Shown: positions 36,512-49,684, numbered from the stretch's first letter. The stretch is 64,000 nucleotides of DNA from an uncultured archaeon (GCA_964525635.1 CAZGJX010000002.1:12024-76023); one strand, 5' to 3'. Made by a program: numbers and translations. Notes: generated by a model not told the origin, from the sequence alone.

Positions 36512-36871
36512 ATGTCTGAAGATCAATTTCAACATTTATTGCATAATATTTTTGATAATATAGAAGGAGTCAGGTCCGCAGCAATAGTCTCACAAGAAGG
36601 TCTTGTTGTCCATTCCATTTTAGAAGAAGGTATTTCTGAAATAAAATTAGCCGCAATGACTGCTACAATTCTTTCTGTTGCTGAAAAAGTTCTTCATGAA
36701 CTTAAATCAGGAATTCTTGATGTTTGTATTGTACAAGGAGATGATGGGAATTTTTGTGTCATGGAAGCAGGACCAGAATTAATAATTGCTGTATGTTTAA
36801 ATATAGATGCTCGTATGGATACTTGCTTCATAGAAATGAGAAAAGTCTCAGAACAAATTAAAAATATATAA
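36512..36871 (+). CDS. Roadblock/LC7 (MglB/LAMTOR-like) domain protein
   Basis: EGVRSAAIVSQEGLVVHS, LAAMTATILS, IVQGDDG, in a 119-aa protein. Confidence 0.88.
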   Translation: MSEDQFQHLLHNIFDNIEGVRSAAIVSQEGLVVHSILEEGISEIKLAAMTATILSVAEKVLHELKSGILDVCIVQGDDGNFCVMEAGPELIIAVCLNIDARMDTCFIEMRKVSEQIKNI

Positions 36872-37042
36872 ATATTGTTTTTTTATACAAACCACCTTTT
36901 ACTTCACTTATTTATTAATGAGTTATTAACTTTAAATAATTAAAAATCTGAAAACTTGAACTCTATTCTATTTAAAATAACTTACAATCATAATATAATT
37001 AAATAAAACTATAAAAAATACACCAAATATATGTGATATCTT

Positions 37043-38278
37043 TTGGCAAAAACAATGGAAGTTAGTAATAATGGAAGTATTGAAATGGGTGAACCATATT
37101 ATTGTAAAGAGTGTGGTAGAACTCATCAGAAAGGAAAGATTTATCAAGATCATTTTAAATATGCTCAAAATCAAGAAAATATAGAAGAAAATAATGAAAT
37201 CGAAGATTATAATGAAGATATAGAGTCCGAAGATATTGATGATATTGATGATATCGATTATGATCAGGATGAAATCCTTGATGATGATATTGATGAGGAA
37301 TATGTTGAAAATGAAATAGATGAAAGGACTTTAGATGATTGTATAGATGAAGTCAAAGGACTTCCTGGAGTAGGGGATGCAACTTTAAAAAAATTAATTA
37401 AAGCAGGTTTTACAAGCCTTGAATCTATTGCATACACACCCCCTTCAATAATTCAAGAAGATAGTGGTTTAGGAGAAAAAACTACTGCTACTCTCATTAA
37501 AGCTTCTATGAAAAAATTAAACATAGGATTTAAATCAGCTCAAGATTTATGGGAACATAGAAAAAATATTACGAGAATTTCTACAGGGAGTCAGGAATTA
37601 GATAATATTTTTGCAGGAGGAATCGAAACTGGATGTGTTATTGAATTCTTTGGAGAATTTAGAACAGGAAAAACCCAAATTATGCATCAATTATGCGTAA
37701 ATGTTCAATTACCTCTAGAAAAAGGAGGTCTTGAAGGAAGAGCACTCTATATAGACACAGAAGGTACCTTTAGACCCGAAAGAATTATCCAAATGGCTGA
37801 AGCACTTGATTTAGACTATGATACAGTTTTGAAAAATATAATTTTTGGCAGAGCTTATAATTCAGATCATCAAATCCTTCTTGCTAAAGAAGCAGCAAAT
37901 ATTATAAAAGAAAAAAATATTAAGTTAATAGTTGTTGATTCTTTAATTGGTCATTTTCGAAGTGAATATATTGGAAGAGGAACACTCGCCACTCGTCAGC
38001 AAACAATAAACCAACATTTACATGATTTACTAAGATTATGTGATATTTATCCCCAATTAGCTGTTGTTGTAACAAATCAAGTTCAAGCAAAACCAGATGT
38101 ATTTTATGGTAATCCCATACAAGCTGCTGGTGGTAATGTTATTGCTCATGGTTCAACTATAAGAGTTTATTTAAGAAAAGGTAAAGGAGAGCAGAGAGTA
38201 GCAAAAATGATTGATGCTCCTCATTTACCGGAAGGAGAAGCTGTTTTCAGTATAACTGAAAATGGTATTTCAGATTAA
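37043..38278 (+). CDS. radA: RadA recombinase with N-terminal Zn-finger-like and acidic extension
   Basis: Hh[52 protein letters not shown]. Confidence 0.96.
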
Positions 38279-38405
38279 TAAATATCTTATTTTTAATTAT
38301 TATTTTTAAAATTCTAAATTAGTTAAAATATAGAATTTTTAATACAATTACTAGATGTTTTAGAATGGATATATAAAATTAAAAAAAATTAAAAATAAAA
38401 ATTAG

Positions 38406-41400
38406 TTATAAATTTTCAAATTTTTTAGATAAACCAATTAGTCTCTTAACTTCATCCTGCATTGAGTTGACACCTAATTTGAAGGCTTCAGATGCTTTAT
38501 TAGCAGCTTGTTTGAATTTTTCAGCAGCCATTTTATAATTCTTTTTCTTAAGTTCTTTCTGAGCCTGAGTTTCAAATTCTTTCTTACTTAGCATTGTATC
38601 ATCAATCTGGGTAAGACGTATAGCTTCTTGTAGTTCTCCAAGAGGTCTTTTTAAACCCCAATCATTAGCGATTATAGCAGCTTCCTCATAATATATAATT
38701 GCTTTTTTGTATGATAATACTTTTTTCTCTTTCCTTGCTTTAATAACGAGGATTTTAACCTGTTTTGAAGCCTCTTTGTTGGTTGTAACAACCTTCCCTG
38801 CAATTTTAGATTTTATTGGAGCCGATACAATCTCTTGCTTTTCTTGTAAACTTGCGAAATAAACTTCACGTTCTTGAGCACTCATTTGTGCCAATTGATC
38901 AATCATTGCCTGTGTTTCTTCACGAGGCAAAGTAACAAACTCACAGATCCTCTGTTCAATAAGCTGTTTTTCTTGTGGAGAAATAGCTTTACTTTCTAAA
39001 GCAGTAACGTCCCAAGGTATCAGTATTTTCTTTTCTCTTAGCTCTTTTATACCCATGAATATTTTTGAAATACCCTTCGTTGACTTTGTCATTGTCTTTT
39101 CAAGTAAGTTGGATATAAATATATAGTCTTTCCCTGTTTCTTTCGATATAGATTTAGCATTACCCAATATATCTTTTGAAGTAGTTATCCTTAAATCTTT
39201 GATAGCAGAGGAATCTAATTGAACTTGATGGGGAAGAATAATCGAGGTTTGGAAAATCTCATCTATCGAAGGGCCAGCATCTTTAAAAACATTCAACTGA
39301 CCTCTCCAGTTTGGTAAGGCAGCAGAATATCTTTGTTCAAAGAATTTAATGAATTCTCGAAGTTTACTTCTTAATAAAATAGATGCTTTTTTACTTAAGA
39401 CTAAAGAAACTCTGATATATTGACCATCAGCAAGTAGAAGCATCTTGTCTTCATAGCTTATTTCATTTAGTGCTTTTTGAGATTCTACTTCCTTTCCAAA
39501 TGATGAAACTGCTGATATAAATCCACTTATCAAATCGGGATCTATTTTTTCTGAACCATAAGATTTGAAGAATATGCAAGTACCGCTTCCCTTATATAAC
39601 ACTAAAATATGTTCTATATTTACAGCATCATCAAATACAGTCTTAACTTCGTCTAAAACACTATCTCTTCTTCTTTTCTGAGGAACTACTACTTTCTTAT
39701 AACCGACAATACCAATACTTGCCATTATTGCAGCCGCCAAGATTAATAATATATAAGGTATTAAATCTTCAAGATTTAATCCATCAGGTGGAGATTTTAC
39801 TCTTATATAAGGAACCTCATAACTTCCAGGTTCATGGTTATACGTCTCGGCGAAAGTAATTTGTATTGTCATATTTGCTGCTTGGTTGGGAATAATTATT
39901 TGAAACCAAACTACTCCATTACTATTGGTACTATTTTGAGGTATTGCTAAAGGTGTTGTTGTATTATCTTTATTTAGAAATAAGCCTGAAATACTTACTA
40001 GGGTACTTGTAAGAGGAAGCCATTGAGTACCATCATTATATTCACATAGTATTTTTAAATCAAATGAATTCCCTGCTGTCACTGAACTAGGAAATGATGT
40101 TGCATTGATTCTTACTTGATATTTTGCATAGATTGTGATATTAAAGGAAATCGAAAGTATATTATATGGCGCAAGACTAGCATTAATATCTATTCTGTAA
40201 AATCCAAGATCTAGTATAGAGGTTCCTATATTACCCGTATATTCATTTCCACTAGGATTTAATGATGAAGATAATGTATCTTCTTGTAATGATATCAAAT
40301 TAGTAGCATTAATAGTAAAAGTCACTGGTACCCCTTGAATAGCGATAAGATCGACATAATTATAACATGAAATATTTAAAGTTAATTGAAGATCACTCTC
40401 TTCAAAAAAAGTATAATTTCCAGAATCCCACAATCCTCCTTGAGTATTAACTGAAATAAAATTGATTTGGGTATCATCTCCTGCATAATAAAATTCAATA
40501 ACACTAGAGACACTCCAATTATAGTTTGGAGGATATGAGATATTTATATAGAAAGCATGCCAATCCAAGGTTAAACCAATAGTACTTATATTTAACTCGT
40601 AATCTCCATTTCCCAGTTCATAAAGCGACCAATTAAATATATCTCCGGTATACCATAAATCTTGGGTTGCATTATCAAATACTTGAATATTACTAGTTTT
40701 TAGACCTTCTATTCCTCTATCATTTAAAATATCATTGTAATAGAAAGTGACTGTTTGGTTCCATGTAGAACCTTCGGTAACTACATCATTAAATATTAAA
40801 TTTACAATTTGAGTTTGGGCGTGTATTACATTGATTGTAATGTTTATATATTGAGTTTCATTACCCTCAGAACTTATACTAAAATCGCATACATAGGGGG
40901 AACCTGAAACATCTACATCATTAGTATCTATTAAAATGGTATAATTTCCATTTCCATCATTTGACCAAGGATACACAGTAAATCCAGTGGGTATATCTTC
41001 AGATAGAATGCTAGCTGCTGTAATTGGATTACCATCTGTATCAGAATAATTGAAGGTATAGGTTGCATTTTGCCCTCTTATGATATCACCCAAGTTCGGA
41101 GTATTTGTTGGAGTTATTTGTGTAGTTATAATTTCATTAAACCAAAAGATAATAGTATCATTATTATAATTATCTTTCCATGCTTCAATTTCTATATAGT
41201 TATTTCCATAACTAAGAATTGTAGTATCAATTTCAATTTCATAAGTCCCATTATTATGATCCCACCAATTTAAAGGAGCTGGTGCATTTGATTCAATATT
41301 TCCGCCTAAAATAGGCTGATTTTGTCCAGTATCATTATAATATACAGATATATTAAAAATTTCTCCAAAAAAATATTCCAGACCTACCTGTGAATTAAGA

Positions 41401-43124
41401 ATTAAATTAGTTGTTGCGTTAATTGTTAAAACTCTTTCTTGAAATCCAATATCTGTTCCATTATTCCATAAAACTTGAGCTCGAAAATCACCATAATCTG
41501 TTGCATTTTCGCTGATATCCCAAGTAGTCATACTAAATGTTGTATCAGCACCTAAAATAGATACATCTTGTGTTTCATTATGATTCAAAATATTTCCTGC
41601 ATCATCAGGGCTATAAACTTCAAGTGTGATATTACCATTTGACATTGTTCTATCGAAGCTTACTTCAAAATCAACTGTCTCATTAAAATTAACTTCATAT
41701 GTCTCAATAGGCCCTAAAAAGATTTGAAAACTAGTCATAAGATTTTGAGATTGACTAGTTATGAACCAATTGGTACTATTCCCTGCATTAGTTATTTGAT
41801 ACTCTCTATACTCTCCTATCGCTGGACCTAATATTGTATCATCAGTAACATTAAGAATTGAATTAAAAGCTTGTTGATTACTCCAATGATGCGGTATTGT
41901 GAAATTAATCCAATAATTACCATAACCTGACTCTGAATCAAAACAATCAATATTTCCTAAGGTAATGATCCAATATACATTTGGATCTGTTTCACTACAA
42001 TTAAAATATGATGTTGCTTTTAGGTCTGAACGAGTATAATTTACTTGAATTTGGGTTACTTGACATGACACATCCCACCATTCAGCAGTTATTTCATAGG
42101 ATAATTGATTTGGTAAAATTGTATATTCTTGACTAAAAGTTACATTTCCTGATCCAGGACTAGAACCAAGTATTGGATTGTTATTAATTTCGAGCCCAAT
42201 TTGAGATGGTGTTGGTGTATTGCTCTCGGGAACCAAACCAACTCTCATTAGATAATCTATAGTATAAGAACTTCTAACAACTAAATCCCAATCTCCAGAA
42301 ATATATGTCAAACTAATTGTTTGATCTCCATCTCCAGTAATACCTCCATCTAATGTATTATACCATGCACAATCTCCTCCATAAGAGGCATCATCAAATA
42401 AACCTATAAACCATATCTTATCCATTGTCTTTGAGTTATCCAATTGAATATTTAATCCAGTAATTACATGCCATCCATCCCCAGTAGCATTTGATATATC
42501 TATAAGTTGTTGAAAATCATTGATACCCCCTCCAGGTTTATATGTTCCTAGTCCAGAATCATATGTAGCATTATATAAAACAACTCTAATTCTACCAGTC
42601 GCAAGTTGCTCTTCAATGAAAACAGATATATTATTGATATAACCATCCCCTTCTACCTCAAAAGAAGTTACTCTAGGAATTACTGTCGAAAAATCTCCAA
42701 CACTAAAATCTTGAGGATTATTCTCTTGTAGTATTAAATATTTATCAGGAGCATAAATATTATCAATATTTATCTGTGAAACTGTAGAATTAAAATTCTT
42801 TTCAAAAGGAGTATTTGTAGTAAATGTTCTTATTGCAGGATCAGATACATTTGTTATATCAAATAGAGGTGCACCAACTTCAATTTTTGATTGATGTAAG
42901 GTAGTATTTATATCTTGAGAATATCCATCATAATAACCAGAATATGCAGCTGATTTTAAAGTAAGGTCGTCCTCTATAGGTTCTATTTCATTATCATCAT
43001 CAACACTATTCATTCCACAAGGAAAGTTCAAAAAATTAGTAAATCCTACCGAAAACAAGAATGAAACAGTTAGAATCGCTAAAAGAATTATTCTATTTGT
43101 TTTTTTATTTTTAAATTGTAACAT
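38406..43124 (-). CDS. Large type I membrane protein: signal peptide, about 1,100-aa beta-rich ectodomain, TM, cytoplasmic longin-like plus helical (MIT/TPR-like) tail
   Basis: N-terminal basic and hydrophobic signal. N/T/S-rich repeats (GNGxYxIxIxT) with many NxS/T sequons. TM LIPYILLILAAAIMASIGIVGY. Cytoplasmic HILVLYKGSGTCIF..DPDLISGFISAVSSFGKE. Confidence 0.75.
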   Translation of the reverse strand: MLQFKNKKTNRIILLAILTVSFLFSVGFTNFLNFPCGMNSVDDDNEIEPIEDDLTLKSAAYSGYYDGYSQDINTTLHQSKIEVGAPLFDITNVSDPAIRTFTTNTPFEKNFNSTVSQINIDNIYAPDKYLILQENNPQDFSVGDFSTVIPRVTSFEVEGDGYINNISVFIEEQLATGRIRVVLYNATYDSGLGTYKPGGGINDFQQLIDISNATGDGWHVITGLNIQLDNSKTMDKIWFIGLFDDASYGGDCAWYNTLDGGITGDGDQTISLTYISGDWDLVVRSSYTIDYLMRVGLVPESNTPTPSQIGLEINNNPILGSSPGSGNVTFSQEYTILPNQLSYEITAEWWDVSCQVTQIQVNYTRSDLKATSYFNCSETDPNVYWIITLGNIDCFDSESGYGNYWINFTIPHHWSNQQAFNSILNVTDDTILGPAIGEYREYQITNAGNSTNWFITSQSQNLMTSFQIFLGPIETYEVNFNETVDFEVSFDRTMSNGNITLEVYSPDDAGNILNHNETQDVSILGADTTFSMTTWDISENATDYGDFRAQVLWNNGTDIGFQERVLTINATTNLILNSQVGLEYFFGEIFNISVYYNDTGQNQPILGGNIESNAPAPLNWWDHNNGTYEIEIDTTILSYGNNYIEIEAWKDNYNNDTIIFWFNEIITTQITPTNTPNLGDIIRGQNATYTFNYSDTDGNPITAASILSEDIPTGFTVYPWSNDGNGNYTILIDTNDVDVSGSPYVCDFSISSEGNETQYINITINVIHAQTQIVNLIFNDVVTEGSTWNQTVTFYYNDILNDRGIEGLKTSNIQVFDNATQDLWYTGDIFNWSLYELGNGDYELNISTIGLTLDWHAFYINISYPPNYNWSVSSVIEFYYAGDDTQINFISVNTQGGLWDSGNYTFFEESDLQLTLNISCYNYVDLIAIQGVPVTFTINATNLISLQEDTLSSSLNPSGNEYTGNIGTSILDLGFYRIDINASLAPYNILSISFNITIYAKYQVRINATSFPSSVTAGNSFDLKILCEYNDGTQWLPLTSTLVSISGLFLNKDNTTTPLAIPQNSTNSNGVVWFQIIIPNQAANMTIQITFAETYNHEPGSYEVPYIRVKSPPDGLNLEDLIPYILLILAAAIMASIGIVGYKKVVVPQKRRRDSVLDEVKTVFDDAVNIEHILVLYKGSGTCIFFKSYGSEKIDPDLISGFISAVSSFGKEVESQKALNEISYEDKMLLLADGQYIRVSLVLSKKASILLRSKLREFIKFFEQRYSAALPNWRGQLNVFKDAGPSIDEIFQTSIILPHQVQLDSSAIKDLRITTSKDILGNAKSISKETGKDYIFISNLLEKTMTKSTKGISKIFMGIKELREKKILIPWDVTALESKAISPQEKQLIEQRICEFVTLPREETQAMIDQLAQMSAQEREVYFASLQEKQEIVSAPIKSKIAGKVVTTNKEASKQVKILVIKARKEKKVLSYKKAIIYYEEAAIIANDWGLKRPLGELQEAIRLTQIDDTMLSKKEFETQAQKELKKKNYKMAAEKFKQAANKASEAFKLGVNSMQDEVKRLIGLSKKFENL

Positions 43125-43385
43125 ATTTATCAAAATATGTATAATTTGCTTAATATATTATAACTAAAAAGTAGTTATTTTCTAAAATATATTTATTCTT
43201 TTTGTTATTTATTATTTGAGATTTTCTTAGACTTTTGTTCTAGGGATACACTTTAAAAATACGAAAAATTTAGTAATTATCTTAAAATGATCTTGAATTA
43301 TTTCAATTTTACCTAATTAATTATATAAATTTAATATATAAATTTAATTTGAAAATAGTAAGAATTATAAATTCTAACACATGTT

Positions 43386-44069
43386 TCAAGATTTTAATAT
43401 AATTCTAGCATCTACACATATAAGCTCTTTTTGATACACAAAAATAGGATTCAAATCAATTTCCTGAATGGATTTATATTGTAAAACGAATTCTGAAATT
43501 TTCATTAAAATATTAATAATTGCATCAATGTTTACTTTAGGTCTTCCTCGAAATCCTGTTAATAATGGAAATCCTTTAATCTCCGTTATCATCTCACGAC
43601 AATCATATTCGGTTACTGGAATAATTCGAAAACTAACATCATCTAAAAGTTCAACCAAAAGCCCTCCAATACCAAACATAAGGGCGGGTCCAAATTCAGG
43701 ATCAGTTGTCATACCAATGATAATTTCGGTAATCGGAGGCTCAGCCATCTTTTGTATGGATATTATCTTTTCTTTTTCAGAAGTTATATTCATAAGTTCA
43801 TTGAATGCATTTATTGCTTCTTCTTTATTCTTAATATTTAATTTAACAGCTCCCATTTCTGATTTATGGGCGATATCCTCAGTAATTAATTTCATAACAA
43901 TTGGATAACCTATTTCATTAGCAACAACAATGAGTTCTTCTTTGGTTGATACTAGTTTTTGATTAGGTATTGGGATACCTATTTCTTTTAATATCTCTTT
44001 AGAATCAAATTCATTGATAATTTCCTTTCCCGCTTGGATTTTATTCTTGAGAAACAAATTAATATCCAT
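43386..44069 (-). CDS. acdB: ADP-forming acyl-CoA synthetase beta subunit (ATP-grasp)
   Basis: IGYPIVMK, AHKSEMGAV, DPEFGP..MFGIGG..VE, EIDLNP, VDARI. Confidence 0.9.
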   Translation of the reverse strand: MDINLFLKNKIQAGKEIINEFDSKEILKEIGIPIPNQKLVSTKEELIVVANEIGYPIVMKLITEDIAHKSEMGAVKLNIKNKEEAINAFNELMNITSEKEKIISIQKMAEPPITEIIIGMTTDPEFGPALMFGIGGLLVELLDDVSFRIIPVTEYDCREMITEIKGFPLLTGFRGRPKVNIDAIINILMKISEFVLQYKSIQEIDLNPIFVYQKELICVDARIILKS

Positions 44070-44219
44070 TTAAAATCATTTAATAATAAAGTAGAAGTGT
44101 TTACTAAACATTTCTGAATAGTTTATAGAATAATAACATGAATAAAAAATTAATCAAAACACTTTTAAAACCGAAATTAAATAACTCATATAAGAATTAA
44201 AATTTTCAAGATGATTTTT

Positions 44220-45302
44220 ATGGTAAGTGAAAAAGAGAAAAATATCACAATTTTAATGGAAAATTTGGTTAACTCTGGATATGATGTAGAATTTGTATTT
44301 CTCTATAATAGACAAGGGTTACTCATAGCTAAATATGAAAAAACTGAAACAGACGATAACCATAAAAATAAAGAAGATATGGAGGAAGTTTATGGAGCAA
44401 TATCTACTTTAGTAGATAATCTTTTTAATAAAATTTCAATGGAATATAAAAGTGATAATTTTGGAACAGGTTCTTTCGACACACCAGATCATCGTATAAT
44501 CTTTCTTGAAGCGGGTCCCGAAGCCGTTATGGTCTGTGTATGCAATTATCAAGCAGATCTAAATAGAGTATTTCCAATAGCATATTTAATTGTTGAAAAA
44601 ATTGCTCAATTGATTGAAGGAAGTTTTGATTTTAAAGTTAATTCCTTAGAGATTCCCCAATTAAGTATTCATAGAGACTTTGATTTATATTTAGATAAGC
44701 ATAAAACTGAAAATACTAAACCTTTACTTGATAATATATATTTAAAACACCGAATTGAAAGGGAAAAAAAAACAGATATTAATTTTAAATTAATTATATT
44801 AGGTTCAGCTTCGGTTGGGAAAACTACTTTAGTAAATAGTTTTTTAAAAAAAGAGCAGCTGTTGGATTATCGTCCAACAATAGGAATGAGTATTTCAATG
44901 CAAAAATATTATATACAAGGTTTTAAAGATGATATAATTACATTTTTAATATATGATTATGCTGGACAAGAGTTTTTCAAACGCGTTAGACATGAATATT
45001 ATAATGGAGCGAATTGTGTTTTTGTGGTGTATGATATTACCAGAAGAGAAACCTTTGATGAAAGTATCGATTTTTGGTTTAAGGATGCTAAGGAACAATT
45101 AGGTGATATACCCTTTGTAATTATTGGAAATAAGATGGATTTGTTGGATCAGCGTCAAATATCAATAGAAGAAGGAAAAAAAAAGGCAGAAGAATTAAGG
45201 AGTTTTTTTATAGAGACTTCAGCATTATATAATAAAAATGTAGTAGATACCTTCAAATTGATAGGAATAGGTCATTTCTTTAGAATTATTGATATTCTTT
45301 AA
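44220..45302 (+). CDS. Roadblock/longin-like domain fused to Rab-like small GTPase
   Basis: N-terminal FLYNRQGLLIA..YGAIS..FLEAGPEA. G1 GSASVGKTT, G2 PTIG, G3 DYAGQE, YYNGA..VYDIT, G4 GNKMD, G5 ETSA. Confidence 0.9.
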   Translation: MVSEKEKNITILMENLVNSGYDVEFVFLYNRQGLLIAKYEKTETDDNHKNKEDMEEVYGAISTLVDNLFNKISMEYKSDNFGTGSFDTPDHRIIFLEAGPEAVMVCVCNYQADLNRVFPIAYLIVEKIAQLIEGSFDFKVNSLEIPQLSIHRDFDLYLDKHKTENTKPLLDNIYLKHRIEREKKTDINFKLIILGSASVGKTTLVNSFLKKEQLLDYRPTIGMSISMQKYYIQGFKDDIITFLIYDYAGQEFFKRVRHEYYNGANCVFVVYDITRRETFDESIDFWFKDAKEQLGDIPFVIIGNKMDLLDQRQISIEEGKKKAEELRSFFIETSALYNKNVVDTFKLIGIGHFFRIIDIL

Positions 45303-45324: not shown

Positions 45325-46344
45325 TCAAATTTGAAAAAATACTATTTTTATTGTTGCATAAAATGCATAAAAACTTATTAAAAGGATAGATTCCCGTGTT
45401 TTAAGAGACTTCTTCGTCCATAGAAAGTAATATGCGATTGATATTCCTATAAAAAGCATTGGTATGTCATAAAATAATAAAATCTTTACGACCTCGAATT
45501 CAGCAATAATAGCACCTGCACCTGTTGCGAAAAGAATATCACAAATGTTGGAACCTAAAATATCCCCTATAGCAATACCATATGAACCTCTTCGCATTGC
45601 AGTTAAATCAACGACAAGTTCAGGTACACTTGTTCCCAAACCAACAATTAAAATACCAATAACATTTTCAGGTACATTTAATTCTTCAGCTAAATTGTGT
45701 CCTGAAAGTATAGATATTTCAGCACCAACTAATAAGAATAATAAACCAATTAGAAAATATAATATATCTTTCCTAATTGAAGGTATTCTTAAGGAACCTT
45801 TCTTAACCTCTAGCTGGAGTGGATCTAATCCCTCTCTCTCAACTTCCTCTATTTTTGGTTCTGCTTTTCTTAATTTTTTCTCACTTATAATTATTAAAAT
45901 TAAATATATGATATATATAATAATCATTGTTAAAGCTTCGATACGAGCTATTAATCCATCAATTGCGAATAGCAAAAAAATAAAAAGAGATAAGAATAAC
46001 ATAGGTCCTTCTCTTCGTAATTCCCATTTGCTAATAAATATTGTCTGTGTTAATCCTAAGAGTCCTAATATAAACGTAATCTGAGTAAAAAATGAACCAA
46101 TTTTATTTCCAATAACTATTCCATCTACAGAGGGATCAATTCCTAAGAGTTTATCAAATCCCCCCATAATTGAGACTGTTATTTCTGGTAAGCTAGTTCC
46201 AATAGCTAAAATCGTCAAACCTACCATTAGGTAACTTATACCAAACCGTTTCGCGATACCTTCTAATCCAATTATGATATATTTAGCCCCAAAATATAAT
46301 GCAACAAATCCTGAAAGCATAAATAAAATTGGATATAACATCAT
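45325..46344 (-). CDS. Ca2+/Na+ (cation) antiporter, CaCA family (YrbG-like)
   Basis: Alpha repeats GTSLPE and GTSVPE, plus GDILGSN. Confidence 0.92.
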   Translation of the reverse strand: MMLYPILFMLSGFVALYFGAKYIIIGLEGIAKRFGISYLMVGLTILAIGTSLPEITVSIMGGFDKLLGIDPSVDGIVIGNKIGSFFTQITFILGLLGLTQTIFISKWELRREGPMLFLSLFIFLLFAIDGLIARIEALTMIIIYIIYLILIIISEKKLRKAEPKIEEVEREGLDPLQLEVKKGSLRIPSIRKDILYFLIGLLFLLVGAEISILSGHNLAEELNVPENVIGILIVGLGTSVPELVVDLTAMRRGSYGIAIGDILGSNICDILFATGAGAIIAEFEVVKILLFYDIPMLFIGISIAYYFLWTKKSLKTRESILLISFYAFYATIKIVFFQI

Positions 46345-46789: not shown

Positions 46790-49684
46790 TTACCCTTTTC
46801 TATGGAATGTACTTAAACTATTTTGAAATTTCTCGCTTTTATGCATTTTTCGCCGAGCAAGGAACTTTCTTATTTCTTCAGCAGGTAGTATCCATATTGA
46901 AGAACCGAAAAATACAGGTGTCCAGTAAAACCATCTATCAAGAGGAAGGGCATGAAAAGCCGTATTTAAACCAGGTATGAATAATACCATCAAATGTAGT
47001 GAAAATGAAAGCCCAGTTGCCCAAAATAAATGTTTATTTCGAAACTCCCAGAATGGTCGATAACTCGATGTGCAAGCAAAGACAAAGAATAATTCAAAAA
47101 ATACTACACTAGTAAAAACAATTGTTTGAACTATACCAATTTGAAAATCCTCAGCACTTATACCCATACTTGGTATACCATAGACCATACGCGAATCATA
47201 GAAAGTTGAAGTTGGATCTGTCCACATTGGAACTAAGACGGACCAAGAGACCGTATATAACATAACATCAAGGATAGCTGCAATAGCGGCTGCATATATA
47301 ATCATTTTCTTTATATCATGAATCATATTGAAGCCTTTCCGCGGTTTGAACTTCATAACATCTGGATCAGTGGGAGTTAGGCCTAAAACCATCGCGGGAA
47401 TGCCGTCGGTAGCTATATTCAACCAAAGGATTTGAATAGGTTGAAGTGGTTGGGCTAGGAATATATTAGTAGCAACCTTCATTAAAATAAATGCTACTAA
47501 TACCATTACAATCTCATCGAAATTAGCACTGAGCATATATCTAAAAAAACATTTTGTTGTTTCGAAGATTCCTCTCCCTTCTTCAATAGCGTTAACAATA
47601 GTAGAATAATCATCGTCTAATAGAATCATATCAGAAGCTTCTTGTGTTACTTCTGTCCCCTTAATCCCCATAGCGACACCTACATTTGCACCCTTTACTG
47701 CAGGAGCATCATTTACACCATCCCCTGTCATAGATACAATATATTCAAGAGATTTCAATGCCTTGAGGATTCTAAGTTTATGTTCTGATGTGACTCTAGC
47801 AAAAACATCAACCTCTTCTACTCTTTTTATAAGCTCGTCTTCAGGCATTTCTTCCATTTCAGCACCAGTAACAGCATCTTCTCTGTCTGTTAAGCCAATT
47901 TCTTTTGCTATAGCGATAGCAGTAATCATATGATCTCCAGTAATCATTATTGTTCGAATACCTGCCATTCTTGCTTCTTCAATAGAATCTTTTACTTCAT
48001 CCCGGGCAGGATCAATTATCCCTGCTAATCCAAGGTATATATAATCTTTTTCAATATCTTCCTTCTGATAATTTTCATTTAAAGGTTTATATGCTAATCC
48101 TAAAACTCTCAATGCATTAGAAGCATATTCATTATTTTTTGATAAATAAGTATCTTCAACCTCTGAAAATGGTTTAATTTCACCATTATATAACCCTTTC
48201 CCTGCATTATGCATTAAAACATCTGGAGCTCCTTTAATTAAAGAATAAAATTCTCCATTCATTCTAATAACAACAGCCATCATTTTACGATCTGAACTAA
48301 AGGGAATTTCATCAATTTTTTCTGCTTTTACGTTAAGATGCATTTTTTTTGCTAAGACTTTTAAAGATATTTCTGTTGGATCACCGATTACATCCGTTTC
48401 TATAGGATTGTTATCTTTAGGACTAACAATTGAATTATTACATAATAAACATATTTCTAGATATTTTCTTAAATAAACATCATCATCTAGTTTAACAGGA
48501 TTACCTGAACTATTGATTATTTTTCCATTCAATGTATATCCCACTCCTTCAACATCAAATTCTTTTCCCCCAAGATATACCTTCTTAACTGTCATTTCAT
48601 TTTTTGTTAAAGTTCCCGTTTTATCAGAGCAAATAATATTAACCCTTCCCAACGTCTCTACAGCTGTTAGCGTTTTCACTAAAGCATGTCTTTCTGCCAT
48701 TTTACGCATACCAATACTCATAACTACAGTTATTACAACCACAAGACCTTCTGGTACAGCAGATACTGCAAGACTTATTGCTATAGCTAAAGCTTCAACA
48801 ATATTATTAATCTCTTCATCTCCAAATTTTATACCTTCAGTGGCTATAATTATAATTAATTCAAAAAGGAAGACAAATAAACAAATAATCATTATGATTA
48901 TACCAAGTTGTTTTCCAAAACGATCTACTTCTTGTTGGAAAGGACTTTTTTCTGGTTCTTCTTCTTGAATTTTTTCAGCAATTTTTCCTACTTCTGTTTT
49001 CATTCCAGTTCTTACAACTATAGCTTCACCATTTCCACGAGTGATAATTGTATTACTATATACCATATTTTTCCTATCAGCCAACATTGTCTTCTCTTTA
49101 TATAAATTTAAATCTTTCTCAACTGGTTGAGATTCTCCAGTAAGAATGGCTTCATCAATATATAAAGAATATGCTTTATTTAAACGAGCATCAGCAGGTA
49201 TTTTATCTCCCTCATCAAGTTTTATTATATCTCCTGGAACTACTTCTCTGACATCAATTTCTCTTACTTTTCCCCCACGCTTAACCTTTGCATTGTGCGG
49301 TGCCATTTTCTTTAGACTTTCTACCGCTTTTTCTGCTTTAAATTCTTGATAAAATCCTAAAATAGCATTTAATATTAGAATAATCAATATTACTAAAGCA
49401 TCCATGAATTCAGTAGGATCTCTTCCTCTAGATAATTCATAAATACCTACTACAACTGAAACACCAATTGCAAAAAATAGAAGATATACAAGAAAATCCT
49501 TGAATTGTCCAATAAAAATTTGTAATGCAGAAACCTTCCTTGTTTGGATTAATTCATTAAAACCATATTTTTCAATGCGTACTCCTACTTCTTCTTCTGA
49601 AAGTCCTGTATCAAGGCTTGTATCTATTTCTTTCGCTACATCATTTACTTCTAATACGTGAGCACTTAATTCTTTAGATTCCAT
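46790..49684 (-). CDS. P-type IIA Ca2+-ATPase (SERCA-like)
   Basis: TGES, PEGL, CSDKTGTLT, KGAP, MITGD, TGDGVNDAPA, LWLNIATDG. Confidence 0.93.
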   Translation of the reverse strand: MESKELSAHVLEVNDVAKEIDTSLDTGLSEEEVGVRIEKYGFNELIQTRKVSALQIFIGQFKDFLVYLLFFAIGVSVVVGIYELSRGRDPTEFMDALVILIILILNAILGFYQEFKAEKAVESLKKMAPHNAKVKRGGKVREIDVREVVPGDIIKLDEGDKIPADARLNKAYSLYIDEAILTGESQPVEKDLNLYKEKTMLADRKNMVYSNTIITRGNGEAIVVRTGMKTEVGKIAEKIQEEEPEKSPFQQEVDRFGKQLGIIIMIICLFVFLFELIIIIATEGIKFGDEEINNIVEALAIAISLAVSAVPEGLVVVITVVMSIGMRKMAERHALVKTLTAVETLGRVNIICSDKTGTLTKNEMTVKKVYLGGKEFDVEGVGYTLNGKIINSSGNPVKLDDDVYLRKYLEICLLCNNSIVSPKDNNPIETDVIGDPTEISLKVLAKKMHLNVKAEKIDEIPFSSDRKMMAVVIRMNGEFYSLIKGAPDVLMHNAGKGLYNGEIKPFSEVEDTYLSKNNEYASNALRVLGLAYKPLNENYQKEDIEKDYIYLGLAGIIDPARDEVKDSIEEARMAGIRTIMITGDHMITAIAIAKEIGLTDREDAVTGAEMEEMPEDELIKRVEEVDVFARVTSEHKLRILKALKSLEYIVSMTGDGVNDAPAVKGANVGVAMGIKGTEVTQEASDMILLDDDYSTIVNAIEEGRGIFETTKCFFRYMLSANFDEIVMVLVAFILMKVATNIFLAQPLQPIQILWLNIATDGIPAMVLGLTPTDPDVMKFKPRKGFNMIHDIKKMIIYAAAIAAILDVMLYTVSWSVLVPMWTDPTSTFYDSRMVYGIPSMGISAEDFQIGIVQTIVFTSVVFFELFFVFACTSSYRPFWEFRNKHLFWATGLSFSLHLMVLFIPGLNTAFHALPLDRWFYWTPVFFGSSIWILPAEEIRKFLARRKMHKSEKFQNSLSTFHRKG

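Follow-up and report, generated by a model that had tools for sequence, protein, structure and literature searches.

The window analysed here, a stretch of 64,000 nucleotides from an uncultured archaeon (GCA_964525635.1 CAZGJX010000002.1:12024-76023), carries between positions 36,512 and 45,302 three genes that a preliminary description had brought together as a candidate signalling neighbourhood: a free Roadblock/LC7 protein, a single-pass surface glycoprotein with a longin-like domain in its cytoplasmic tail (hereafter the receptor) and a fusion of a roadblock-like domain to a Rab-like GTPase (hereafter the fusion). Open reading frame (ORF) listing and family scans agree that all three genes are present and laid out as first given, and the domain calls hold, the free protein being a PF03259 roadblock (46 bits against a cut-off of 23), the receptor tail a longin by its fold and the GTPase an intact Rab-like protein behind a roadblock domain. 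The stretch is, however, two separately conserved units and not one: a roadblock-radA pair, and a block of Ca2+ P-type ATPase, roadblock-GTPase, acdB and glycoprotein genes that has stayed together across two Lokiarchaeial families. In the window the fusion is transcribed divergently from acdB and the receptor, with spacers of 141 bp between fusion and acdB and 252 bp between acdB and receptor (Table 1; G, C, L, f and g numbers are our handles for genomes, contigs, loci, families and genera).

Table 1. Features of the 9-kb stretch and its neighbours, in positions of the window; residues are those of the protein or, where so named, of the receptor tail.
Feature	Position	Strand	Basis or remark
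Free Roadblock/LC7 protein, 119 aa	36512..36871	+	PF03259, E 4.5e-12
RadA recombinase with N-terminal extension	37043..38278	+	NF003301 RadA, E 5e-136
Type I surface glycoprotein (receptor), 1575 aa	38406..43133	-	ORF, hydropathy and orthologue search
Receptor ectodomain, residues 37-1123	39765..43025	-	Sequon excess; weak Ig-like/lectin-like leads
Receptor transmembrane helix, residues 1124-1147, then KK..KRRR	39693..39764	-	Hydropathy 2.51
Cytoplasmic longin-fold domain, tail residues 23-150	39240..39623	-	Structure model and fold matches
Winged-helix-like region, tail residues ~160-232	38994..39212	-	Model pattern and soluble paralogue
TPR/MIT-like helical C-terminus, tail residues ~300-427	38409..38792	-	Sequence and structure matches
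acdB-like ATP-grasp protein (ADP-forming acyl-CoA synthetase beta subunit)	43386..44069	-	PF13549 (ATP-grasp_5), E 3e-69
Roadblock-Rab-like GTPase fusion, 363 aa	44211..45302	+	Family scan, model, profile-profile comparison
Roadblock domain of fusion, residues ~8-136	44232..44618	+	hhalign, iterated hidden Markov model (HMM) search, topology
Rab-like G domain of fusion, residues 186-363	44766..45299	+	Fold matches, G1-G5 motifs
Ca2+/Na+ antiporter	45325-46344		Beside fusion; insertion in genus g1
Type IIA (PMR1/SERCA-like) Ca2+ P-type ATPase	46790..49684	-	TIGR01522, E 8e-181

Hydropathy gives the receptor a signal or anchor segment at residues 12-36 and a single transmembrane helix. Its 1087-residue ectodomain holds 42 NxS/T sequons where shuffled sequences lead one to expect 20.1, the 427-residue tail (receptor residues 1149-1575) holds none, and lysine and arginine make up 17% of the tail as against 2.8% outside it; the confinement of sequons to the ectodomain and the Lys/Arg-rich tail together give a type I topology with the tail in the cytoplasm. 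Pfam and NCBIfam have no family for the whole protein, its ectodomain or its tail (receptor and tail checked to E 10). The ectodomain yields weak Big_13 and MG4 matches and an immunoglobulin (Ig)- or lectin-like lead in the ESM Atlas that at 0.86 falls under its bar of 0.9, and probably consists of beta-sandwiches of the Ig or lectin type. The word receptor is an architectural label only, no ligand-binding domain having been found. Between orthologues the ectodomain diverges faster than the tail (27-40% against 35-55% identity).

Assignment of the tail relies on an AlphaFold2 model built on an alignment (A1) of 26 orthologues and relatives (mean predicted local distance difference test score, pLDDT, 84; predicted template modelling score, pTM, 0.71). 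Strands at tail residues 25-32 and 37-43, a helix at 51-63, strands at 74-79, 82-88 and 92-98 and helices at 104-120 and 138-151 make up a five-stranded antiparallel sheet between helices in the longin order beta-beta-alpha-beta-beta-beta-alpha(-alpha). Tail residues 23-150 superpose on Sec22b with Z 11.6 and a root-mean-square deviation (rmsd) of 3.1 over 123 of 128 residues; AP sigma (Z 10.9), a Lokiarchaeal longin (8yqg, Z 10.7), synbindin, Ykt6, SRX and Fuzzy also match, some 40 longin chains score between Z 9.5 and 11, and roadblock chains are weaker. The domain is a longin by fold only, since no curated Pfam model matches it. A roadblock-tailed receptor was also considered and was rejected, since the tail shows no profile-profile similarity to either of the roadblock alignments and its fold is that of a longin. 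Beyond the longin domain, tail residues ~160-232 appear winged-helix-like, being modelled as a helix-helix-helix-strand pattern, and a soluble paralogue (C4:68678) has a TrmB/HTH_47 winged helix at the equivalent position behind the same longin domain. The C-terminus of the tail has a consensus TPR match (E 9e-7), Pfam MIT is found in six of the 26 orthologues (best E 0.0015) and TPR_2 likewise in six, and the VPS4A MIT domain matches by structure (Z 10.6, rmsd 1.9, 66 residues, 23% identity), although for helical bundles scores under Z 13 are indecisive. With TPR matches equal to or better than those to MIT, the end appears TPR/MIT-like, a label that makes no choice between the two.

Of 41 related genomes, 30 have a single-copy orthologue with the full tail, which is confined to one order; homologues carry the source names Lokiarchaeota and Promethearchaeota. 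Elsewhere in the phylum only its longin and winged-helix part occurs. A phylum-wide search with a tail-only soluble homologue (P0065) gave no loci beyond the receptor loci already in hand, and a related-locus search with the same protein had no result. Receptor length across orthologues runs from 1296 to 3031 residues, with ectodomain size very variable. The longest, in G032 (L009:1841-10936), is double the length of that in the window and has its tail domains at residues ~2410-2830; the shortest, the syntenic receptor of g9 (G021, L063:5550-9440), has a short divergent longin and winged-helix-like tail without the TPR/MIT-like end. Ectodomain-like genes lie downstream of the receptor on the same strand in several genomes (L010:1579-6265 in MK-D1, L002:10564-12396, L011:10988-13276 and L050:17835-18992), and the longin HMM finds no domain in those scanned (L010, L011). 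On another contig of the window's own genome a short ORF (G000:C49:1460-1696) has 77% identity to tail residues 68-146 and could represent a fragment of a gene or an incomplete duplicate of the longin domain.

For the N-domain of the fusion Pfam alone has no match. Its profile does match that of the free-roadblock orthologues (hhalign, 97.8%, E 1e-12, 116 columns), an iterated HMM search of the genome merges fusion N-domains and roadblocks into one set, the topology is alpha-beta-beta-alpha-beta-beta-beta-alpha and a paralogue on contig C20 matches PF03259. The G domain has a Ras-family match at residues 193-350 (E 7.9e-41) and in the structure model of the fusion (pLDDT 81, pTM 0.83) has its best matches in Rab3C (Z 25.2, 32% identity) and Rab6 (Z 24.8), with weaker ones to Arf6 (Z 18.8), RagD (16.6), MglA (16.1) and LokiRagO (about 16.5). 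The five G motifs are in place (G1 at residue 198, G2 at 220, G3 DYAGQ at 249, G4 NKMD at 307 and G5 at 336), and GxxxxGKT, T223, DxxGQ, NKxD and SA(L/K), the catalytic glutamine included, are invariant in 18 sequences. The protein is described as Rab-like and not as a canonical Rab because it has no C-terminal Cys motif for geranylgeranylation. A C-terminal Cys is absent from every fusion orthologue examined, and the GTPase has no myristoylation site; the earlier remark that this GTPase has no lipid anchor of its own was thus correct, and a protein tether would be needed for the fusion to act at a membrane. Nor is it a Rag/Gtr protein, its roadblock being N-terminal and PF04670 giving no match.

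Evidence that the fusion and the receptor belong together comes from comparison across families. Family f2 is represented by two complete genomes, that of Promethearchaeum syntrophicum MK-D1 (G038; NZ_CP042905.2, 100% identity) and G032, and by a metagenome-assembled genome, G025, in which the block reaches the contig end. Within 40 kb either side in MK-D1 and G032, only four of the 48 genes of the window are still together, and these are the Ca-ATPase, the fusion, acdB and the receptor; G025 has the same order. In f2 all four genes are co-directional, with gaps of 88, 86 and 230 bp in MK-D1 and, across the fusion-acdB-receptor run of G032, of ~70 and ~90 bp, so that to judge from strand and spacing the arrangement in MK-D1 looks operon-like. 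In MK-D1 the receptor is encoded at L010:6396-11951 and the fusion at L010:12979-14010, and the four genes extend over L010:6396-17038, or about 3.6677-3.6783 Mb of NZ_CP042905.2. In genera g1, g2, g4, g5, g8, g10 and g11 of family f1 the fusion occupies the same slot but is inverted relative to f2, and since the slot is kept while the orientation differs the linkage has survived an inversion. Adjacency within f1 is in itself uninformative, because the region from ~33.5 to 61 kb is wholly collinear there. Every member of the fusion orthogroup that was found sits at this locus; in a quick maximum-likelihood tree the at-locus fusions of f1 form one clade (Shimodaira-Hasegawa-like approximate likelihood-ratio test, SH-aLRT, 99), and the best matches elsewhere from genomes without the fusion fall into a separate paralogue clade (SH-aLRT 98-99). 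The acdB gene adjoins the receptor upstream in nearly all loci with contig coverage, and unlinked candidates for its alpha subunit exist. Beside the block, the Ca2+ P-type ATPase is tandemly duplicated in g5, g8 and g9 (L048, L049, L050, L063).

Paralogues of the tail longin within the genome of the window provide a second set of links to GTPases. There are 64, among them eight single-pass surface proteins, 13 multi-pass membrane proteins, 17 TPR-longin proteins of ~730 residues and soluble forms. Four of the eight single-pass members have a GTPase gene no more than 2.5 kb away where 1.15 would be expected (P ~0.011, a post hoc figure that includes the locus itself). The C133-type receptor is an independent longin-tailed lineage whose distribution is too narrow for a deep synteny comparison; it is directly preceded by three (G000), two (G001) or one (G002) small GTPase genes with gaps of 15-118 bp, and in G007 a GTPase gene lies directly 3' of it. 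A further paralogue of 301 residues (C153:1550-2452, L056) fuses a tail-type longin (residues 8-137) to an Arf/Ras-like G domain (135-275). The locus L057 (G000:C133:1-7100) has three tandem small GTPases followed after 15 bp by a single-pass longin-tailed protein of 1605 residues, an arrangement found again in two congeneric genomes.

Established examples of longin or roadblock platforms that bind small GTPases and regulate them are SRX-SRbeta, Mon1-Ccz1, TRAPP, Ragulator-Rag and MglB-MglA, and in eukaryotes the regulation of Rab, Arf and Rag GTPases makes use of the longin fold. A tentative reading of the locus, put forward here as somewhat short of an even bet, is that the membrane-tethered longin is a platform for anchor-less small GTPases and that the adjacent roadblock-Rab-like GTPase is its ancestral, dispensable client. 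The tail would set the longin domain ~25 residues below the membrane, followed by the winged-helix-like and then the TPR/MIT-like regions, and the longin, probably dimeric or else paired with the roadblock domain of the GTPase itself, would give small GTPases without a lipid anchor a platform on which to dock and be regulated. The neighbouring roadblock-Rab-like GTPase would be a client that the platform had from the start but can do without, and the TPR/MIT-like end may recruit downstream factors. Physical binding, the direction of signalling and a guanine nucleotide exchange factor or GTPase-activating protein activity are what we infer for these parts. The platform reading draws support from the block linkage having outlived all other synteny within 40 kb either side, from a second receptor lineage that abuts GTPases together with the existence of a longin-GTPase fusion, and from a GTPase that is intact and anchor-less, with known longin- and roadblock-GTPase complexes among the fold matches. 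A wider form of the idea, in which single-pass glycoproteins with a juxtamembrane longin are the general membrane tethers and receptors for anchor-less Asgard small GTPases, with this locus as the ancestral and most conserved example of a pre-eukaryotic pathway from transmembrane receptor to Rab-like GTPase, seems unlikely on present evidence.

Whether these genes could be neighbours by pure chance is a fair question, as the genome of 4.45 Mb encodes 85-89 Ras-type GTPases, 18-31 roadblock domains and the 64 longin paralogues. By randomisation, 11 of the 64 longin genes lie within 5 kb of a GTPase as against 11.0 expected, 23 as against 17.1 within 10 kb, and seven as against 6.5 within 10 kb of a roadblock. 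The caution first voiced, that such expanded families may meet by accident, was therefore well placed, genome-wide co-localisation being at the chance level; the excess over chance is the linkage of fusion, acdB and receptor kept across families. Because the same orthologues keep their position across genera and families, chance is refuted for the fusion-receptor pair and as an account of the whole neighbourhood has become very improbable, and it stands for the free roadblock. The original proposal of one receptor-adaptor-GTPase system, in which free roadblock, receptor longin and roadblock-GTPase heterodimerise, is very improbable as well. The three genes do lie within 9 kb in g1, and roadblock, radA and receptor are adjacent in g5, g8, g9 and family f3, but the collinearity of f1 leaves adjacency there without weight. 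In f2 the orthologues of the free roadblock (50-53% identity) immediately precede radA in G032 and G030, and in MK-D1 the distance to radA is 6 kb; the receptor lies 90-160 kb off. In g2 and g11 the locus lacks the gene. Its conserved neighbour is radA and not the receptor, with which the roadblock-radA pair has nothing specific to do. Of the linkage first suspected, then, the part between receptor and roadblock-GTPase stands across two families and that with the free roadblock falls away.

Several observations weigh against the platform reading and some of them favour a conserved neighbourhood without physical coupling, which holds that the block reflects inherited order or shared regulation and that the partners of the tail are itself, other GTPases of the roughly 89 in the genome or, through its C-terminus, factors binding the endosomal sorting complex required for transport (ESCRT) or TPRs. 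No member of the fusion orthogroup turned up in g9, g6, g17, part of g5 and seven of ten g11 genomes, absences that imply at least five losses, and the fusion-less genomes with a full tail keep both its invariant residues and the acdB-receptor adjacency; a need of the receptor for the adjacent GTPase is not supported, that GTPase having been lost repeatedly with no decay of the tail. The acdB gene always lies between fusion and receptor with no evident role, and the window fusion is divergently transcribed. In the quick tree the at-locus fusions of f2 sit at the unresolved base and do not form one clade with those of f1, the longin family as a whole is not enriched near GTPases or roadblocks in the genome, and Tran, Akil, Senju & Robinson (2024, PMC10933270) report that the GTPase genes of MK-D1 do not as a rule share operons with those for roadblock or longin proteins. 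Absence of coupling would also suit a functionally mixed block (a Ca-ATPase, acdB, a GTPase and a surface protein) and a TPR/MIT-like tail end. It is less easily squared with everything else within 40 kb either side having been reshuffled between the families while these four genes are still together, co-directional and closely spaced, nor does it explain the second receptor lineage that abuts GTPases or the longin-GTPase fusion, and it seems a serious but rather less probable account. Alternatively the true partner of the roadblock-GTPase could be the Ca2+-ATPase or acdB, with the GTPase regulating for instance the pump or the acyl-CoA synthetase and the receptor a downstream bystander. The fusion is always between these two genes; in G006 it stays with both while the receptor, in inverted orientation, lies at a distance of 3.9 kb, an arrangement that also counts against the platform reading, and in g1 its neighbour is an inserted Ca2+/Na+ antiporter gene. 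However, in every genome without the fusion the Ca-ATPase and acdB genes are still neighbours, so that neither depends on it, and we know of no precedent for roadblock-Rab-like GTPases regulating either of them. A partnership of this kind is improbable.

Comparison with known systems shows both likenesses and differences. In the signal recognition particle (SRP) receptor, where the SRX domain of SRalpha meets SRbeta, a longin likewise binds a small GTPase at a membrane, and SRX structures match the tail domain (7obq, Z 10.1; 5ck3, Z 9.6); there, however, the GTPase is anchored by a transmembrane segment and the longin protein is soluble, whereas in the window the longin is transmembrane-anchored and the GTPase soluble, and homology beyond the fold is not shown. 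Ragulator-Rag and MglB-MglA share the pairing of roadblocks with small GTPases, with LAMTOR and MglB as weaker fold matches. In Rag the roadblock is C-terminal and Ragulator is lipid-anchored through LAMTOR1, and MglB and MglA are separate proteins with neighbouring genes, whereas the window fusion carries its roadblock in cis at the N-terminus and the free roadblock goes with radA. The longin SNAREs (Sec22b, Ykt6, VAMP7) are the best structural matches of the tail domain and are also membrane-anchored longin proteins, but they are tail-anchored and all cytosolic, with an N-terminal longin, a SNARE motif and a C-terminal transmembrane segment, whereas the receptor runs from a large ectodomain through the membrane to the longin and has no SNARE motif.

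Fusions of roadblocks and of longins to GTPases, and the expansion of these families in Asgard archaea, were already known (PMC10933270; 10.1101/2020.10.19.343400). The roadblock-GTPase fusions described in MK-D1 (PMC10933270) likewise have an N-terminal roadblock and a small G domain and belong to the Lokiarchaeial GTPase expansion. The window gene itself has an MK-D1 orthologue. That survey grouped roadblock- and longin-fused GTPase architectures with a Rag/Arf-like class, from which the window protein differs in its Rab-like G domain and in its conserved link to a longin-bearing membrane protein. An Asgard operon of a LAMTOR1-like protein, a Rab-like GTPase and a DENN protein (Liu et al. 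2021 preprint, 10.1101/2020.10.19.343400) similarly brings a member of the roadblock superfamily and a Rab-like GTPase together in a conserved neighbourhood that has been proposed to be a regulatory module; the window proteins differ, there is no DENN, and the platform lies within a transmembrane surface glycoprotein. No description of transmembrane-anchored longin surface proteins linked to GTPases was found in the literature searched, whose coverage is incomplete, so that novelty is not proven.

From the first description of Lokiarchaeum onwards it has been a puzzle how Asgard small GTPases act at membranes, as they have neither sites for prenylation or myristoylation nor the enzymes for these modifications (Dey, Thattai & Baum 2016, PMC4917890), and the MK-D1 structural survey saw no informative gene linkage of GTPases to roadblock or longin proteins (PMC10933270). 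The locus is a candidate answer in that it places a longin under a surface glycoprotein genetically linked to a roadblock-Rab-like GTPase, and as the same cluster is present in cultured P. syntrophicum MK-D1 the idea is directly testable. Were it true, receptor-coupled small-GTPase signalling would be older than eukaryotes; were it false, a real conserved block would still have been told apart from a chance neighbour, the free roadblock.

Other longin paralogues have settings of their own. The 17 TPR-longin proteins, with the longin C-terminal, are encoded on contigs C3, C77 and C89 (for example L071, G000:C3:19795-22002), most in tandem arrays, and 11 lie on C3 between 19.8 and 54.1 kb; none of the 17 is near a GTPase. 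The 13 multi-pass proteins, of 326-542 residues with five to seven transmembrane segments, end in a tail-type longin (for example L072, G000:C90:5492-6559, and L073, C14:44145-45467), and Pfam has no family for their membrane part. As to the roadblock-radA pair, it is kept on the same strand in three Lokiarchaeial families and is adjacent in G032, G030, G026, G021 and others, and we have no explanation for a roadblock protein linked to a recombinase. The N-terminal extension of RadA, of ~100 residues (37043-37342), has a zinc-ribbon-like CxxC...H motif and an acidic Asp/Glu/Ile repeat tract, and the RadA orthologue in G021 (L063:4210-5487) also carries a CxxC motif and an acidic tract.

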